Assembly (NCBI GenBank): GCA_951406725.2
Contig: OX597816.1
Coordinates: 82,832,001-82,896,000 of the forward strand
Length of the DNA: 64,000 bases
Reading direction: 5' to 3'
DNA from: Octopus vulgaris
Lineage: Eukaryota
Shown here: positions 37,487 to 61,485 of the stretch, piece after piece
How the letters are laid out: each line of letters opens with the position of its first letter
Position numbering within the stretch: the stretch's first letter is position 1
Program-made: the position numbers and the translations under genes
The notes under the pieces: generated by a model
Databases searched by the model: none
What the model was told of the DNA's origin: nothing
What the model saw: only the letters and a program-made list of their open reading frames with translations

Positions 37487-40400
37487 TCATCATCATCATC
37501 ATCATCATCATCGTTTAGCGTCCGTTTTCCATGCTAGCATGGGTTGGACGGTTCTACTGGGGTCTGTGAAGCCAGAAGGCTTCATCAGGCCCAGTCAAAT
37601 CTGGCAGTGTTTCTACGGCTGGATGCCCTTCCTAACGCCAACCACTCCGTGAGTGTAGTGGGTGCTTTTTACGTGCCACCCGCACTGGTGCCAGACAGAG
37701 CTGGCAAACGGCCACGAACGGATGGTGCTTTTTATGTGCCACCGGCACGAGGGCCAGGCGAGGCTGGCAACGGACACGAAACGGGGCGGTGCTGGCAACG
37801 GTCGCGAAACGGAAAGTTCTCTTACATGCCACCGGCACTGGTAACACATCTGCAATTTCCATTGATCGATTTCCATTCTGATCGTCACTTGCCTCAATGG
37901 GTCTTCACAAGCAGAGTTTTGACATGCCACCGGCACTGGTAGCACATCCGCAATTTCCATTGATCGATTTCGATTCTGATCCTCACTTGCCTCATCACGT
38001 CTTCACAAGTAGAGTTTTGTGTCCCAAGAAGGGAAGGTATGCATACGTAGGCTGGCTCCATCCCATGTAGAAGGCCACGGGTTATGGACTCACTTGTCCT
38101 GCCGGGTCTTCTCGCGCACAGCACACTTCCAGAGGTCTCGGTCTCTAGTCATTTCCTCAGTGAGACCTAAAGTTCGAAGGTCGTGCTTCACCACCTCGTC
38201 CCAGGTTTTCCTGGGTCTGCCTCTTCCACAGGTTCCCTCAACCGCTAGGGTGTGGCACTTTTTCACACAACTATCTTCATCCATTCTCGCCACATGACCA
38301 TACCAGCGCAAACGTCTCTCTTGCACACCACAACTGATGCTTCTTAGGTCCAGCTTTTCTCTCAAGGTACTTACACTCTGCCGAGTGTGAGTACCGGCAT
38401 TACACATCCATTGGAGCATACTGGCTTCATTTCTAGTGAGCTTACGCATATCCTCAGCAGTCACGGCCCATGTTTCACTGCCATGTAGCATGGCTGTTCG
38501 TACACACGCATCATACAGTCTGCCTTTCACTCTGTGCGAGAGGCCTTTTGTCACCAGCAGAGGTAAGAGCTCTCTGAACTTTGCCCAAGCTATTCTTACT
38601 CTAGCAGTTACACTTTCAGCACACCCGCCCCCGCTGCTGACTTGGTCACCTAGGTAACGGAAACTATCAACTATTTCTAGTTTTTCTCCCTGGAAAGTGA
38701 CGGAAGTTGGTCTCAGAGCATTTTCAGTGTTTATTGTTCCTGAGCATCTGCCACATACAAAAACCATCTTCCTAGTTAGCCTTCCTTTGACATTGCTGCA
38801 TCTCTTATGTGTCCATAGCTTACACTTGGTGCATCTTATAGAGTTTCTACCTACACCTTTTCTACAGATCGAGCAGGGCCATCTACCTGAAGGTGTTTGT
38901 GATTTGTCTACCTTCCTACTGATTACGACTTTGGTTTTAGCTAGATTGACTCTGAGGCCCTTCGATTCTAATCCTTGTTTCCACACCTGAAACCTCTCCT
39001 CCAGTTCTGATAGCGACTCAGCAATTAGAGCAAGGTCATCAGCATAGAGGAGCTCCCAAGGGCATCCTGTCTTGAATTCCTCCGTTATTGCCTGGAGGAC
39101 TATGATAAATAGGAGGGGGCTGAGTACTGAGCCTTGGTGGACTCCTACCTCTACCCGGAATTCTTCACTGTACACATTTCCAACCCTCACCCTACTAGCG
39201 GCATCCCTGTACATGGCCCGCACAGCTCTCACTAACCATTCATCTATCCCTAGCTTCCTCATTGCCCACCAGATAAGGGATCGGGGGACCCTGTCGAAGG
39301 CTTTCTCCATGTCAACAAAAGCCAGGTACAGGGGCTTATCTTTGGCTAGGTATTTCTCCTGCAGCTGCCTTACCAGGAATATAGCATCAGTAGTACTTTT
39401 CCCTGGCACAAACCCAAACTGCATCTCATCTAAGCTAACTCTCTCTCTAATTAGTTGGGCTATGACCCTCTCCGTAACCTTCATCACCTGGTCCAACAGC
39501 TTGATACCTCTGTAGTTATTTGTATCTAGGGCATCACCTTTACCTTTGTAGCAGTTGACTATTATACTGCTACACCAGTCATTGGGTATGACCCCTTTGT
39601 GTATCACCTGATTAACTATACGGGTGACTAGGCTATAGCCGACACTACCAGACATTTTGAGCATCTCTGCAGTGATTCCTGATGGGCCTGGGGCTTTCCC
39701 TGTCTTCATGCTTCTAATTGCCTTAGTTACCACGGAACTATCAACTCGGATAGCTGGTCCCTCTGTTGGGTCAACATTCGGCAGACTCTCTTTATCCCAT
39801 TCATTTTCTTCATTCAGCAACCTTTCATAGTGGCATCTCCAAACCTCTCTCTTTGCATCCTCATTTAGCGCAAGTGAACCATCTTCCATGCGAACACACT
39901 TCTCTCCTACCACATCACGATTCTCTCTCACACACTGTCTTGCAACACGAAACACCTCCAGTCTTTGGTCCTCACGACGCAGAACATTGGCAAATTTTTT
40001 CTTATCTGCTTCCCCTCTGGCTAAATAAACCTGTCTCCTAGCTTCTCTTTTGGCAGTCTGATACAATCCCCTGCTACCCCCATTTTTCCAGACCTTCCAA
40101 GCCTGTCTCTTTTCTCTAATAGCCCTGTCTACAATATTGTTCCACCACCACGTTATTCTAGGTCGAGAGGGGACTTTGCACCAGCCACAGATCTGGTCAG
40201 TGGCTCTCAGCAGGTTGTCCCTTAGAAACGTCCAGCTGTCTTCTACCCCCTGTGATGCTCTATCCCCTTCTACTTCGTCAGAGGCTTCAAGTAATATGTC
40301 CCTAAATCTCTGTCCATTTGCAGGATCTTTAAGCTTCCAGATCCTTCTTCTCCATATTTGTCGTCTTCTGGTTGTCCTCCTAGTCCTGATCCTAAAGTCA

Positions 40401-40667
40401 CTAACTACCAGTCTATGTTGTGGGGTACATTCTTCACCTGGGAAGGTTTTGGCATTTATAAGCAGCCATCTCTCCCTTTGCCTTGTAAGGATGTAGTCAA
40501 TTTGGCTGGTATGTTGGCCCGATTGGTAAGTGACTAGGTGGCTGGTAGGTTTCCTGAAGTTAGTGTTGCAAATCATAAGATTATTTGCATCGCAGAACTC
40601 CAGCAGCCTGGTTCCCTCCTCGTTGCGGGAGCCATAGCCATAGCCTCCATGTACGCCATGGAAGCCC
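37487..40667 (-). mobile_element. RTE-clade non-LTR retrotransposon, 5'-truncated, young, in intron 1 antisense to the gene
   Basis: Stop-free frame 40667-38090 containing the C-terminal half of the AP endonuclease (SQIDYIL, QHRLVV), RT (NYRGIKLL, QFGF, VDMEKAFDRV, GVHQGSVLSP, YADD, FRYLG) and the RTE C-terminus (RLRWYGHVARM, GRPRKTW). Followed by a ~600-bp 3' UTR and a (GAT)n tail. Confidence 0.95.
38090..40667 (-). CDS. RTE ORF2 (partial APE endonuclease + reverse transcriptase with inserted C4HC3 finger); no native start
   Basis: ORF track 859 aa. The first codon is TTG at the truncation point; the frame begins just after where the endonuclease GDFN motif would be. Confidence 0.85.
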
Positions 40668-40709
40668 AATAATAAAAAATATGTTAATTTTTAAAGATAA
40701 GGTCTGTAT

Positions 40710-42172: not shown

Positions 42173-43580
42173 GTGACTGAATCAAAGAAGGAAAACCAAC
42201 TCATCTGTTATCACATTATTTGGAAGTCTTTAAACATGGAGTTCATTCCACAAAGTTGTTTCTACATGGATAATGCTTATTGGTATGGAGGCCCGGAACT
42301 AATGCAACCTATGTATCCTATTGAGAAAGGAACTTTCTCATGGACATCATTTGTACCAGGTTTCAACCCTAGTGACAGCCAAAGTAACCAGTCCATGGGA
42401 CCAGTTGTAGAACGCTACTGGATTAATTCTCAAGGAGCTGGTATTGCCGTCGATAACTCCATAGCCCTTCATACCAGTATGAATTACAAATTTGAGAATA
42501 AACTCTGTTTTAAGGCCGTCATTAGTGATCACAGTCTCCCTACTCTCAGCTATACAGTGTGCAAAGCCAGCAATGTACGAAATGTACACGACTACATGAG
42601 GAAAAGTATATTTGAAAATCCTACTGCATCTCCAGTTGATTTAATAGGCAAACCTCTTTGGACAACTGAAGAATATTTCGGGAGTTCAATAGACCAACAA
42701 AAATACTTATGGTATGCTGATAAAATTACTAAAACTGGTTTTTACAATTCACAAATCCAACTTGATACGTATTCTTCTGTGGTTGGTGATACTACAGTCT
42801 CTTCAATTAAGTTTCCAAACTCACATCAAATGTTTGGTCAAATGAAAGAGTTGAAACTTTATGTACGTCTCAAAGTGTGTATGTGTGCTAGTCCTGATGT
42901 ATCTTATTTTGCTGAGGGAAAAGAGAAAGGATTCTGGCTAGTAGACAAGAAAAGCAAGGCAATTGCAATGAGTTCATCAAAAGATGGAATGGTAGCATTG
43001 GTAGATTTCACAAATCCTGATGCTGTGAAGTGGTACCAAGACAAAATATCTCTCTTTGGAAAAGATTATGGTATACAGGCTTTTACATTTGATTTTAATG
43101 AGATTCACAATTTGCCACTTACGGTCTCATTCAAAAGTATTTTTAAAACTCCTGCTGATTACTTGACAAAAAGCTCTGAAGTTGTTTCTTTCATTGATCA
43201 AAATGCTATAATCAAATTTGGCTTCCAGTCTCAACATTTTCCAATATTCATTGAAGCAGTTCCAAAAAACATGACCTGGGATTATAACAGTGGCTTAAAA
43301 AATGTCATTCCAAACATGCTAACTTTAGGAATTCTTGGTTTTCCATTCATTGTACCAAGTGCTATTGGGGGTACAAACTATACTGGGACACTGCCTGCAA
43401 GCAAAGAACTGTTTATTCGTTGGGCACAGATGGTCAGTTATTTTCCTATTATGCACTTCTCTGTCCCGCCGTGGCACTATGATGAAGAAACTGTGCATAT
43501 TACACAAAACCTAGTCAAGCACCATCAACAGAACATTGCTCCTTTAATAAAGCATTTAATGAAAGAAGCAGAAGTTACAG
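42173..43580 (+). CDS. MYORG: MYORG-like GH31 glycosidase, coding exon 2 (N-terminal beta domain and catalytic barrel)
   Basis: Polypyrimidine acceptor ttttag| before 42173 and donor acag|gtaata after 43580 (phase 1). Motifs WYGGPE, VVERYWINSQG, VDFTNPDAVKWY, FTFDFNE, LTLGILGFPFIVP, ELFIRWAQ and FSVPPWHYD are typical of MYORG-type GH31. Confidence 0.93.
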
Positions 43581-43689
43581 GTAATATAGTTTTTTCAAAT
43601 GTTTTCTGAAATATATATATATGTGTGTGTGTGCATGTGTGTGTGTACATGTATGTATATGTATGTGTGTGTGTGTGTGTATATATATA

Positions 43690-44140
43690 TATTGGGTAAT
43701 CCCATAAATAATGTGGTTTTTTTTATACTTTTATCTTTCAAAATTAAGATAAAGTTCTTTTTTAATCTAAAATATACTCTCCTTCATTTCTACAATGCTC
43801 TTCCATCCATCTGGTAGACTTGCAAGGACCCTCTTCCAAAATTCACTTGTCCATAATGAAAAATACTCTTCCAGTACAGTTCTGACCTCATCTACAGAAT
43901 TCATATTTTTTCCGTCCAAATGATTTTGAAGACTGCAGAATAAATGATTATCAGATGGGGCAATGTCTGGTGAATATGGTGGATGGGGCATCGTTTCCCA
44001 TTCAAACTGCTCCTGTCTTTGGAATGTCATCTTCACTATGTGGCTGGGCATTATCTTGATGGAAGAACACCTTCTGTCTTGAAACAAAAGACGGTCGTTT
44101 TTCTTCTAGCACTGACTTAATCCACTCAAACTGCTGAAGG
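43690..44140 (-). mobile_element. Mariner 3' fragment (intron 2)
   Basis: FHQDNAQPH, HPPYSPDIAPSDNHLF; TIR-like tattgggtaatcccataaata inserted at (TA)n. Confidence 0.85.
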
Positions 44141-44599
44141 TAAAAACAATACCAGTAATAACTGGAGCATTGGGCTTGATAAAAAAACATGAGCAAAAAC
44201 ATACTACACTATCCAGAAAATAGCCCTGCTAGGAACAGCCTACATCCTATGCAAGATAATATCAATTCAATAATACAACCTAAACAAAGCAACCCACAAA
44301 CACAAGACACTCTATACAGCAATTACCCAGTGAAATAAACTTCCACCAGCAAGCTAGATAACCCCTGCATTACACACTCAACACACAATACAAGCAGTAA
44401 TACAACAAAAGACTGCACCACACCCCAAGACAAAAAGAAGACAGCAGAAAAACTAACAATAAATACCAGGAAGAGTTTTGTGCACGCTCAACAACAGCAA
44501 AGAACACACATTGCTGCACACATCCCAGAAATATGGAAGTGTAGCAGGTGGGGCAGTCGAAATTTGTCTTAAACAATCAAATGTTGAACAATTATATAA

Positions 44600-46175
44600 T
44601 AATAATAATGCTGAAATTTGAGCGATGGGGAAAGTTGATTACATCAACCTCAGTGCTCAGCTGGTACTTACTTCATCAACCTTGGAAGGATGAAAGACAA
44701 AGTCAACCATGGCCGAATTTGAACGTTATGGTGGATGAAATGCTATTGGAGGAATTATTAGCTCTTCAGATAAATGCCTTGGTATTGATAGATCCTATCT
44801 GATCAAGCTTACTAGCCTTGTGCCTAAATCAGAAGCCACTCTTCCTTGTATTAAGATGGTAAACTGGCAGAGTGCTTAGCACCCCAGACACCAAGACAAA
44901 ATGCTTTGCAGCAGTTTTTCTGGTTCTTTATATTCTGAGGTGAGATTCCACTGAGGTTGACTTTGCCTTTTATCCTTTCAGGATCAATAAAATGAGTACT
45001 TGTTGAACATTAGGGTTGATGTAATCAGCCTAACCCAGAGTCAATAAAATAAGTATCAGGGGAGCACTGGTGTCGATGTAATCAATTAATCAGCCTCTGC
45101 TCCCCAAATTTCAGGCCTTGTGCCTATGGTAGTAAAGATTATTATTATTATTATTGTCAAAGGTTGTAAGCTGGCAGAATCATTAGTGTGTCAGACAACA
45201 TGCTTAGTGGTATTTCTTTTGGGTCTTTTTGTTCTGAGATCAAATGCTGCTGAGGTTGATTCTACCAAATCGCCATGCTTGCATGGCGATTTGGCAGAAT
45301 TGTTGGTGCGCCAGACTAAATGCTTAGCAGTATTTTGCCCATCGCTATGTTCTGAGTTCAAATTCCACCATGGTCAACTCTCTGCCTTTTATCCTTTCAG
45401 GGTTGATAAAATAAATACTAGTCAACTAGTGGGGGTCAATCTAATCATCTTGCCCTTCCTCTCAAAACTACTGGCCTTGTGCTGAAATTAGAAACAATTA
45501 TTATTATTGTCAACTTTACCTTTCATTGTTTCAAAGTTGATGAAATAAAGTACCAGTCAAGTACTGGGGTCGATGGTATTAGCTAATTCCTTCTCAAAAT
45601 TGCTGGGTTTGTGTCTAAATAATAAAACCTGTACTACTATCATGATCATTAAGATGGCCAGCTGGCAGAATTGTTGAGGAGTCGGACAAAATGCTTTGTG
45701 ACATTTCTTCTGTTTCTCTCTACATTCTGAGTTCAGGTTCCACTGAAGTTGACTTAACATCCCTTCTGGGTTGGTAAAATAAACACCAGTTGAGTACTTG
45801 GGTTAATGTAATCAACTTCCCCACCCTTCAAAATTGTTGGCCTTGCATGGTGATTGGGCAGAATTGTCGGTGCGCCAGACAAAATGCTTAGCAGTATTTT
45901 GCCCATCGCTATGTTCTGAGTTCAAATTCTGCCATGGTCAACTTTGCCTTTCATCCTTTCGGGGTCAATAAAATAAGCACCAGTTGAACACTGGGGTCGA
46001 TGTAATTGACTAGTCCTCTTCCCCAAATTTTCAGTCCTTGTGGCAAAATTCGAAACCATTATTATTATTATTATTATTATTCCAGTGAGGTCAAACTTTC
46101 ATCCTTTTAGGGGTTGATAAATTAAGTACCAATGTAATTGACTAGTCCCCTTCCCACAAATTTCAGGCCTTGTGT
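44600..46175. mobile_element. Dense cluster of family-B SINE copies and fragments filling intron 2
   Basis: At least seven occurrences of the core, mostly + strand, separated by (ATT)n. Confidence 0.85.
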
Positions 46176-46204
46176 CGCCAGCAGAAAAAAATTATTATTA
46201 TTAC

Positions 46205-46265
<61 letters not shown>

Positions 46266-46293
46266 TGTGTTGTCTACTTGTTTCTTTTCTCAG

Positions 46294-46556
46294 GAGCTCC
46301 GATAATACGACCTGTTTGGTGGATAGCACCAGAAGATCCTGTTGCACTGAAAATCGACTGTGAATTTCTTGTAGGGAACAATCTGTTGGTGGCACCGGTA
46401 CTTGATTCTGGCAGTACATCCAGAGATATCTACCTCCCTCATGGCAGCTGGAAGGACAATCTCAATAACAGGGAAATTAAAGGGGCTAAACTGTATAAAG
46501 ATTTCAAAGTTGAACTTCACCAAATTGCTACATTTTCAAAAATGAAGTCTTTCTAG
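46294..46556 (+). CDS. MYORG: MYORG-like GH31 glycosidase, coding exon 3 (C-terminal beta domain)
   Basis: Acceptor tttcttttctcag|ga; phase 1 completes GGA (Gly). Sequence GAPIIRPVWW...EFLVGNNLLVAPVL...RDIYLPHGSWKD, ending at TAG. Spliced CDS 483+1408+263 = 2154 nt = 717 aa. Confidence 0.93.
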
Positions 46557-58825: not shown

Positions 58826-58997
58826 AACATGCATAACATGCATGTACATAGATGTTACACACACTAAAATTACACAAAATATATACTCGTGCCATAAGCA
58901 TATCAATACATACACTGCATACGCAACATATACAAGATAGATTTATCATTAGATGACATATAAGATATGGACATTATACGGGATTATACGGGATACA

Positions 58998-59213
58998 AAG
59001 GCGGCTAGCTGGCAGAATTGTTAGCATGCCGGGCAAAACGTTTAGCGGCATTACGTCCGTCTTAACGTTCTGAGTTCAAATTCCGCCGAGGTCGACTTTG
59101 TCCTTCATCCTTTCGGGGTCGATAAATTAAGTATCAGAATTTCACTGGAGTCAATGTAACCGACAATCTCCCTCTCCTCGAATTTCAGGCCTTGTGCCTA
59201 CAGTAGAAAGGAT
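58998..59213 (+). mobile_element. SINE family B, full length with TSD
   Basis: 13-bp duplication attatacgggata at 58983-58995 and 59214-59226. Confidence 0.9.
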
Positions 59214-59551
59214 ATTATACGGGATATACATTACCTGCATCTAATATCTTATGATATATACATAATTTATTCTATAGGCCATACACACACACACATATAT
59301 ATATTATTACAAATTTGGGATTTTACCAATAAGGCCACAACTTCAATTTCAGGACAACCTTATTTACTGGAGTACACATAGAAAGTTATATCCAAAATAC
59401 TAATCTAATAATATAAGCATTTTAAAGCCTACTATAACGTACAATAAAATAAAGTACATTAGAATTAATTAAAAATTATTTAAACATTTAAAAAAAAAAT
59501 ATATACACCTTACCTGTTATTAGTCTGTGGGGAAAGAAGATAACATTGATC

Positions 59552-59636
59552 AACGCTACACGTGTTTCCGTCCTGGTGGTTTGTTTTACCAGCCTATACC
59601 TAATACATAAACCCACCAGCGCGTCCTCAGGCTATT
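59552..59636 (-). ncRNA. Minimal hammerhead ribozyme motif with canonical core
   Basis: Minus strand: aatagc-CUGAGGA-long stem II (ctggtgg/ccaccag)-GAAA-c(acgt)g-UA-gcgtt; palindromic stem III acacgtgt; weak stem I. Confidence 0.65.
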
Positions 59637-59896
59637 TTTCTTTCTATTATTATTAACGGATCCAACTTAATCATACAAATTCTAATATATCTTCATTAAA
59701 AATAAGAATATATATATATATATAACTTCCTAATATATTTTTACAAAATTTAAAAGATTTTAAAAATTAAAAATTGTAAAATTTAAAAAGATTAATAAAA
59801 ATTTAATAAAATTAAACAGTTAAAAATATAATAGCGATATATATGTATATATATATAAAATGCTAAACATAAAGAGACCCTTTACGTTTATATATT

Positions 59897-60347
59897 TATA
59901 AGACTGCCATATTAATATGGCGATAACAGTTAATTTCCAGTAACGCTGCCGTAATCTCTTTTAGAGAGACTTAGTAATTTTAATATTTCTATTATTGAAA
60001 ACAAGTGGATGTATTCCACCGAAACTAGGTAAATAAAACCTTCGAACAGAGACGATCAGTGGCGACACCTGCTGGGTCTGACTACGCTACATTGACAAAG
60101 GGCAAATACCCTGAAACGCGTCTGTAGCTGTCTGACTGGCAGTGCGAAGCGGCTGACCTCCCTTGTTCGAAGGTTATAATGGATACAGTTTGTGTATCAA
60201 ATAGCTAGCTTAAGGCGATGGCCTCATGGAGCTAATCAGCGACAGCTTTAGTCTTATGTCTATAAGACTGCCATATTAATATGGCGATAACAATTAATTT
60301 CCAGTAACGCTGCCGTAATCTCTTTTAGTGAGACTTAGTAATTTTAA

Positions 60348-60356
<9 letters not shown>
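59897..60356 (+). mobile_element. Retrozyme-like / Penelope-pLTR-like element: 364-bp unit plus 96-bp terminal redundancy
   Basis: Direct repeats 59897-59992 and 60261-60356 (2 mismatches); internal hammerhead motif; flanked by TA-rich sequence and (TA)n. Confidence 0.7.
60086..60128 (+). ncRNA. Minimal type I hammerhead ribozyme motif (U3-A8 core variant)
   Basis: gctaca-UUGACAA-aggg(caaata)ccct-GAAA-c(gc)g-UC-tgtagc: 6-bp stem I, 4-bp stem II, palindromic stem III acgcgt, GUC cleavage triplet. Confidence 0.75.
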
Positions 60357-60407
<51 letters not shown>

Positions 60408-60589
60408 TGTATAATATATGTATATATCATAAGATCCTCGATAATATCAGGTGTTTATAAACCTTATATCATCAAAAGTATATATACATCCTATATATTA
60501 TCAGATGTATCGTCTCTAATTTTCACACACTGAATATATTAGATTGATTCTCAGTGAAAGTTTTTTTTATGGAAAATAGGAGTGACTTT

Positions 60590-61080
60590 CCGAACATGAC
60601 TCTTCGTCGGAGGGGGGAAAAAGTCCAGAAAGAAGGGAAAGTGTACGAGAAGAGCAAGTGTGTCGTTACAAGGCCGAAGAATAACTGACCGGAAGTTGGA
60701 GAAAAATAGATAATGTAGTTGGAGAAAAATAGATAATGTAGTTGGAGAAAAATAGATAATGTAGTTTTTGAAAGAAGGATTGTCTGTATCTGATATTATC
60801 CAGTTGGTCTTGTGCTGCCCAAGATTTTAGTATTCTTGAATCATTCGCCTCGACGCCGCCATCATCCATATGTATGTATTATTTTTACATTCCCCCAAGC
60901 TCAGTATTTGCCTCTTCGTCCAATCCTTTTTCTCCCCAGAACCTCGGTCCTCCAGAATTCCTTCTAAGCACTTGTTTTCTTTGCGGTTTTTGACTTTAAG
61001 AGGAACATTATTGGCATTGATCTTGGCAAACTTGAAGGACTTGCACCGGCCGCCATTGGTTCAAAACATTCCTCATACCA
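60590..61080 (-). mobile_element. Probable Penelope-like element 3' fragment
   Basis: EKDWTKRQIL resembles the C-terminus of PLE GIY-YIG endonucleases; contains a 23-bp tandem repeat x3 (60694-60762). Confidence 0.35.
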
Positions 61081-61094
61081 AACTAATTAAAGAT

Positions 61095-61485
61095 AGGCGC
61101 AACAGCGGATGTGTGGTAAGTAGCTTGCTTACGAACCACATGGTTCCGGGTTCAGTCCCACTGCGTGACACTTTAGGCAAATGACTTCTACTATAGCCTC
61201 GGGCCGACCAAAGCCTTGTGAGTGGATTTGGTAGACGGAAACTGAGAGAAGCCCGTCGTATATATGTATATATATGTATGTGTGTGTATATGTTTGTCCC
61301 CCAAACATCGCTTGAAAACATGCTGGTTTGTTTACGTCCCCGTAACTTAGCGGTTCGGCAAAAGAGACCGATAGAATAAGTACTAGGCTTACAAAGAATG
61401 AGTCCTGGGGCCAATATACTCGACTAAAGGCGGCGCTCCAGCATGGCCGCAGTCAAATGACTGAAACAAGTAAATGATTGAAAGA
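61095..61485 (+). mobile_element. SINE family A
   Basis: Matches the 9181 and 53005 copies. Confidence 0.9.

Follow-up and report, generated by a model that had tools for sequence, protein, structure and literature searches.

The window analysed here, a stretch of 64,000 nucleotides of octopus DNA, contains at 59891-60356 a short hammerhead-bearing repeat, and the questions that this locus raises are what kind of element the repeat belongs to and from what template it was copied. The octopus origin of the window is evident from an exon at 42221-43606 that shows 100% identity, across 98% of its length, with a glycosidase of Octopus sinensis; the exon belongs to a GH31 (Pfam), myogenesis-regulating glycosidase-like gene whose exons lie at 42173-46556 on the plus strand. 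The insertion lies amid microsatellites about 13 kb past the last exon-like frame of that gene. A blastn search found no further copy of the unit within the 64 kb, no open reading frame (ORF) of at least 110 aa for a reverse transcriptase (RT) or GIY-YIG protein was found beside the insertion, and the plus-strand frame at 60840-61181 in its downstream flank has no Pfam match.

Several other features of the window are recorded as observations in their own right. An 866-aa open frame on the minus strand at 38090-40690 has matches to an RT, a PHD-like finger and, weakly and below the Pfam cut-off, an APE-type endonuclease; it is the sole intact RT frame of the window, is LINE-like and not Penelope-like because of that sub-threshold endonuclease match, and we take it to be a nearly intact, RTE-like LINE. 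Insertions at about 58995-59225, with a near-perfect 16-bp direct repeat (58979-58994 / 59210-59225), and at about 61085-61460 are presumably SINE-like. An imperfect inverted repeat (59246-59304 versus 60381-60435, TA/CA runs together with about 35 bp that are not microsatellite) flanks both the present element and a second, unrelated hammerhead-like motif at 59545-59638 on the minus strand (core start 59630, CUGAGGA). The latter has a long helix II (9 pairs, 2 mismatches), a palindromic helix III and a helix I of only 2 bp, resembles the D. virilis Penelope type and is possibly the solo pseudo-LTR (pLTR) of another Penelope-like element (PLE) family. A descriptor tuned to this motif gives one match in the window and two in 600 shuffled windows, the 401 nt around it fold no better than shuffles (z 0.34), and a splice-donor-like CAG/GTAAG lies near 59514, about 40 nt after it. 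A candidate decayed minimal hammerhead at about 60580-60612 (minus strand) was seen by eye and failed the relaxed scan; what lies beyond it in the flank may be a degenerate piece of a PLE. A Sigma-70 promoter scan, irrelevant for an animal, gave a count at chance.

The repeat and its hammerhead

The repeat period is 364, and the terminal redundancy covers 102 bp with four differences, at 59894, 59896, 59929 and 59965 (Table 1). The sequence-only reading had put the locus at 1.26 copies with a redundancy of 96 bp; the repeat itself stands and its extent is corrected to 1.28 copies and 102 bp, the 96-bp core (59897-59992) lying inside with two of the differences. The left edge at 59891 is also given by contig joints that run end-to-start, from 60254 to 59891, in 4/4 of the public sequencing runs with which the unit was compared, representing three samples. 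Provided that the two repeats were identical at the start, their four differences point to a divergence of about 2% in each copy after insertion. We consider it extremely improbable that the redundancy is a local DNA duplication or an assembly artefact, a possibility to which the TA-rich flanks lend some weight, but against which stand the four differences between the repeats and the recurrence of the same joint, with several loop variants, in 4/4 independent assemblies of the three samples. The unit is non-coding, as had been claimed, with a longest stop-free run round the circle of 32 codons on the plus strand and 46 on the minus strand, and its 364 bp and 42% GC lie within the range used for retrozyme families (150-450 bp, GC below 50%).

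Table 1. Features of the hammerhead-bearing insertion, in window positions
Feature	Position	Strand	Remark
Whole insertion, 1.28 copies of the 364-bp non-coding unit	59891..60356	+	42% GC; left edge TA-rich, followed on the right by (TA)n
Redundancy, left copy	59891..59992	+	begins within the junction hairpin's TA-rich loop
Redundancy, right copy (4 differences)	60255..60356	+	ends in an AU-rich loop; other copies likewise end there before (AT)n
Imperfect rod with a perfect 12-bp closing helix and the ribozyme at its tip	60037..60175	+	predicted fold
UAC bulge beside helix I, opposite U60129	60083..60085	+	predicted fold
Canonical type I hammerhead	60086..60128	+	descriptor match; features compared with PMC4209133 and PMC2632901
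Helix I, 6 bp	60086-91/60123-28	+	
Hammerhead core, U3-A8 variant, N7 = 60096	60092-98	+	
Helix II, 4 bp, loop CAAAUA	60099-102/60109-12	+	
GAAA	60113-16	+	
Helix III, palindromic	60117-20	+	
8-bp hairpin over the unit end-to-start junction	60250..60269	+	predicted fold; loop letters vary across the family
(TA)n microsatellite	60357..60405	.	likely insertion target; hides any target-site duplication

The hammerhead that had been read from the sequence, with a predicted cut after C60122, is recovered at the same place by a strict type I descriptor, which was written after the motif was seen using published helix sizes and which gives one match in the window and none in 1500 locally shuffled windows. 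Its core, on which the sequence-only reading did not comment, has U3 and A8 in place of C3 and G8, a natural covariation that is active in vitro in other hammerheads (PMC3088659) and that occurs in about 1300 Schistosoma PLE-type motifs and in Cercyon PLE elements (PMC4209133). The first pair of helix II is A-U in this copy, where G-C is usual. Rfam at its gathering threshold gives no match over the window and, at E of 10 or less, ten matches near the locus, none to a ribozyme and mostly from the TA run; ribozyme classes other than the hammerhead were covered by Rfam only. A relaxed hammerhead scan of the minus strand of the insertion found none. The locus thus holds one hammerhead and, having a single ribozyme, cannot release a monomer or circle; by the definition of an active locus in Li et al. 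2026 (two units in succession, both having a complete hammerhead) this copy is classed as solo.

The anatomy of the motif follows the canonical type I plan of a 6-bp helix I, a 4-bp helix II and a short palindromic helix III (PMC4209133). Specifically, its loop 2 is identical to that of the Schistosoma mansoni Sm-alpha hammerhead, which has the same UAC and U in internal loop 1 (PMC2632901), and since this arrangement is that of the Schistosoma internal loop 1, the UAC bulge is predicted to dock on loop 2. The likeness noted here concerns these loops, and the Sm-alpha core is C3-G8 whereas that of the octopus is U3-A8. The minimal hammerheads of PLE pLTRs are also found in a terminally redundant unit, but have an extra base between positions 9 and 10.1, a long helix II and a short helix I (PMC4209133), in contrast to the octopus motif, which has no extra base, no long helix II and a full 6-bp helix I with tertiary loops. 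Judged by this predicted anatomy, the motif is a canonical retrozyme-type hammerhead and not one of the minimal Penelope-pLTR type.

Predicted fold, family and variation

The unit had been described as highly structured, and folding in circular mode bears this out, with a minimum free energy (MFE) of -114.0 kcal/mol compared to a shuffle mean of -83.1 (z -5.1; 0/150 shuffles as low). The minus strand folds equally well (-115.7, z -7.2), so that folding alone cannot pick the strand. The 12-bp helix (60037-48/60164-75) is perfect as reported, the rod that it closes counts about 42 pairs over 55-nt arms in the predicted structure, and five of the named hairpin and helix motifs (six strings) were found as text in their places, gatac/gtatc and aggc/gcct as helices in the circular fold. 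Outside the rod the predicted fold is branched. A fold that leaves the ribozyme open is predicted at -112.5, 1.5 kcal/mol above the MFE; the ribozyme is free to fold in most animal retrozyme circles (PMC7229834). The hairpin over the junction of unit end and start is likewise present, but it loses its proposed value as a sign of a circle because any tandem transcript would form it too.

The viroid size, the long rod and the strong folding of both strands, together with the diverged subfamilies described below and the suggestion of RNA-RNA replication for mussel retrozymes (PMC7229834), speak for a viroid-like RNA replicating RNA-to-RNA in octopus cells, with the genomic copies as occasional cDNA records. 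We regard such an origin as very unlikely: ribozymes in both polarities characterize hammerhead viroids and viroid-like satellite RNAs and the relaxed scan detected no minus-strand hammerhead in the unit, the fold branches outside the rod, IMG/VR viral contigs give 0 exact 20-mer matches, and the large genomic family suffices to explain the data. Hence the earlier term "replicon", in the sense of RNA-to-RNA copying, finds no support. Two exact 20-mer matches in metagenomes were rejected as chance, being confined to 20 bases in contigs of 67-68% GC.

Part of the queried sequence is present in 20 of the 24 listed sequencing runs, and at least half of its words in six of them, under three organism labels; none of the runs that contain it is listed as RNA. 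A single unit, extended by 39 bp of the left flank, was compared with four runs (X1, X10, X11 and X17; three samples), all of them consisting of contigs, and runs containing under half of the words were left out. The kinds of run are guessed ("DNA?" for X1, RNA for X11 and X17), X11 and X17 serve as sequence sources and not as expression evidence, and contigs as such cannot show copy number, arrays or a circle. X1 yields 2365 contigs (467 at 99% identity or more, 731 at 95-99, 743 at 90-95 and 424 under 90), X10 97, X11 148 and X17 21. Two junction forms in X1 reach depths of 2500 and 2254, compared to 49-68 for 6/8 of the longest listed pieces, which indicates that each form has itself been amplified by a factor of some tens. 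A multicopy family, as had been anticipated, is thus borne out by the variant contigs of X1 and by these amplified forms, and we infer a size of hundreds to thousands of copies. The commonest junction loop, ATTT, matches the left edge of the present copy.

The right end of the insertion also recurs. Among the 24 of 221 loose ends listed, ends that pass into (AT)n after 59995, three bases from the end of the present copy, occur in two contigs of X10, two of X11 and one of X17, and in none of X1; X17 has in addition single ends at 59927 and 59993. One X17 contig (record 25) reads 60062-60188, 77 other letters and then 59902-60077, spanning both the junction and 59995 at the 364 spacing in another phase; it is longer than one unit and ends 9 nt short of the point where a second ribozyme would start. 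The prediction that copies would start at permuted points is only partly borne out, in that one right end recurs and a few other phases occur. No copy with two hammerheads is seen among the contigs, and we count this against the retrozyme interpretation even though contigs cannot show arrays. In 4/4 runs no contig covers the left flank at 59858-59885, and along the rod's 5' arm the summed depth drops about tenfold; neither observation is given weight, because a hole in contigs proves nothing and contig depth does not measure copy number. No place with many contig starts or ends is listed, the predicted cut site included. Single low-depth contigs with joints 60036 to 60164, 60036 to 60151 and 59999 to 60160 skip the ribozyme rod and are possible ribozyme-less derivatives.

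An X17 contig of 2830 nt and depth 50.7 (record 28) matches the unit only over its first 272 nt (59966-60241) and then leaves it. The loose end at this departure shows the junction hairpin followed by an ATG, with about 2.5 kb left, and we infer that it belongs to this contig. Roughly 2.5 kb is the length of a PLE ORF. Record 28 could be a candidate coding Penelope partner of the family, or it may be a host sequence or transcript with an inserted copy.

A contig of this kind is what would be expected if the 364-bp unit were the terminal repeat of an autonomous coding PLE and the present copy its solo pLTR or truncated end, for a coding Penelope would leave the unit after the junction hairpin in the same way. 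The U3-A8 cores of Schistosoma PLE ribozymes point in the same direction, as do the second hammerhead-like motif about 460 bp away and the report that solo pLTR motifs are common, some of them paired on opposite strands 100-700 bp apart (PMC4209133). However, in 4/4 runs and in the amplified forms the end of the unit joins its start with no ORF between, the share of matching contigs that run on into unlike sequence is 0 in X1, 0.02 in X10 and 0.03 in X11 (0.67 in X17; the contigs are short), the minimal PLE features are absent from the ribozyme, no PLE ORF was found beside the present copy, in contrast to a coding PLE, and record 28 may simply be host sequence. On balance we hold a terminal-repeat origin to be unlikely.

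Among the 40 of 75 variant rows listed, the 12 conserved core positions are untouched, while 60% of the X1 depth carries variation at N7, which is free to change. Of these 40 rows, 29 fall inside the 139-nt rod, and by a hand estimate the chance of missing all 12 core positions is then about 0.05, so that the untouched core is no more than suggestive. A second subfamily, with G-C at the base of helix II and a 5-nt loop, appears from linked rows. Changes on both sides of a pair leave it intact at 60071/60140, 60081/60131 and 60089/60125, but all three are double transitions, and such changes never break a pair; a fourth two-sided change, at 60060/60152, breaks its pair. Over the same 40 of 75 rows, 18 pairs are broken versus 17.2 expected, which is not significant, and no excess of A-to-G is found among the types of change. 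The clearest individual indication that structure is under selection comes from one X17 contig, where a two-sided transversion leaves the stem of the junction hairpin paired.

Template and route of insertion

We propose, with a probability of about 0.6, that the locus is a solo copy of 1.28 units from an octopus non-LTR retrozyme family, reverse-transcribed from circular RNA by a Penelope-like enzyme into (TA)n. In this mechanism, tandem master copies elsewhere would be transcribed, and successive predicted hammerheads would cut after GUC to free a 364-nt monomer that a host ligase would close; RtcB circularises other retrozymes in vitro (PMC7229834). A Penelope-like RT/GIY-YIG protein would then nick (TA)n, prime on the AU-rich loop near 59990-59995, copy 1.28 turns through the re-ligated cut site and halt in the TA-rich junction loop at 59891. 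The present copy would be a dead-end product and no source of circles. That both ends lie in TA- or AU-rich loops suggests that the ends of the unit pair with the nicked (TA)n target at the start and at the finish. No PBS or PPT is expected of non-LTR retrozymes, and a target-site duplication, when present, is longer than 4 bp; at this insertion it is unreadable because both ends are TA-rich.

Such a route is in keeping with known systems. In coral, mussel and axolotl, tandem repeats with type I hammerheads are cleaved into monomers and accumulate as circles, and copying by PLE enzymes has been proposed for them (PMC7229834). O. vulgaris has 190 PLE families, making up 6.83% of the genome, and 30 recently active Penelope families (PMC13282606). 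Several PLE clades favour microsatellites, matching the insertion seen here, and such clades are present in Octopus (Craig et al.); the Naiad clade, which these authors name, lacks hammerheads. Retrozyme-like units have been tied to PLE pLTRs, and their dispersed monomers are viewed as non-transposing offspring (10.64898/2026.07.22.740005).

The circular template is the step at which the earlier interpretation, that the insertion is a cDNA of a circle, holds in part. A linear monomer that had been cut and was primed near 59995 would have its end at 60123, whereas the insertion carries an intact cut site in its middle; such a monomer would thus be ruled out, leaving as template either an uncut tandem transcript or a circle closed again by ligation. 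The specificity for a circle does not survive, as an uncut tandem transcript would give the same footprint. The family could accordingly be a non-autonomous Penelope derivative that moves via uncut linear tandem transcripts, its hammerhead inherited and weak and no circle accumulating. We consider this rather unlikely. In its favour, the footprint of more than one unit, an intact cut site and a fixed right end is the same, only 1/9 predicted Xenopus dimers was cleaved in vitro and 8/9 were not, retrozyme units are proposed to derive from pLTRs (10.64898/2026.07.22.740005), and there is no overall structure-keeping among the 40 of 75 variant rows listed. Set against this are the full tertiary-contact anatomy, the core that is unchanged across subfamilies among those rows, and the circles obtained from every northern-tested retrozyme in PMC7229834.

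Record 28 allows two extensions of the proposed retrozyme route. It is very improbable that an abundant viroid-like 364-nt circle is also copied RNA-to-RNA, with genomic cDNA written by a unit-sharing Penelope (record 28) that primes at one AU-rich loop. Less improbable, though still rather unlikely, is the same idea with the RNA replication left out, in which a retrozyme and its Penelope could be traced directly as a pair and priming takes place at one fixed site.

Relation to known retrozymes and significance

The octopus family probably works like, and is, a non-LTR retrozyme. In common with the metazoan non-LTR retrozymes (PMC7229834) it has a type I hammerhead, a non-coding unit of 150-450 bp with GC under 50%, many copies, a strongly self-paired predicted circle with a free ribozyme, and PLEs in the genus; the units of Mytilus galloprovincialis, of about 350-390 bp, are close to its 364. 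Differences are that the U3-A8 core is not mentioned in those parts of the results and discussion of PMC7229834 that were available, that the octopus ribozyme keeps Schistosoma-like tertiary loops whereas mussel ribozymes are mostly without them, and that the octopus locus is 1.28 units with one ribozyme, arrays, cleavage and circles being predictions for its family, whereas the tandem repeats in PMC7229834 are cut and accumulate as circles. The locus resembles the solo or monomer copies of Li, Clavereau and Pollet 2026 (10.64898/2026.07.22.740005), which are dispersed full-length monomers with one hammerhead, read as offspring of active elements for which a PLE origin is proposed. Detection in that study requires two consecutive hammerhead units, which the octopus locus does not have, and its sample comprises 31 vertebrates, 3 insects and 1 coral, with no mollusc.

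The locus is a solo copy of an apparently undescribed octopus family. In agreement with the sequence-only reading, which did not recognise the family as described in octopus, a literature search of partial coverage turned up no retrozyme or hammerhead family from octopus: neither "octopus" nor "cephalopod" appears in the main text of PMC7229834 or in one supplement file of PMC4209133, and no such family is named in the available parts of PMC7761336 and PMC6155905. Repeat databases may list the family, labelled as Penelope, SINE or unknown. Since the class, the core variant and the link to Penelope are already in print, what is added is a new family, and with it a case open to testing, and not a new kind of system.

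A large family whose core is U3-A8 would escape a descriptor limited to C3-G8, and Rfam misses the present copy. The defined ends, an AU-rich loop before (TA)n on the right and a TA-rich loop on the left, offer a handle on the identity of the retrozyme RT and on its priming. Such mobile elements are known in mussels, corals and amphibians (axolotl; PMC7229834), and if the retrozyme reading is true, non-LTR retrozymes would extend to the cephalopods.
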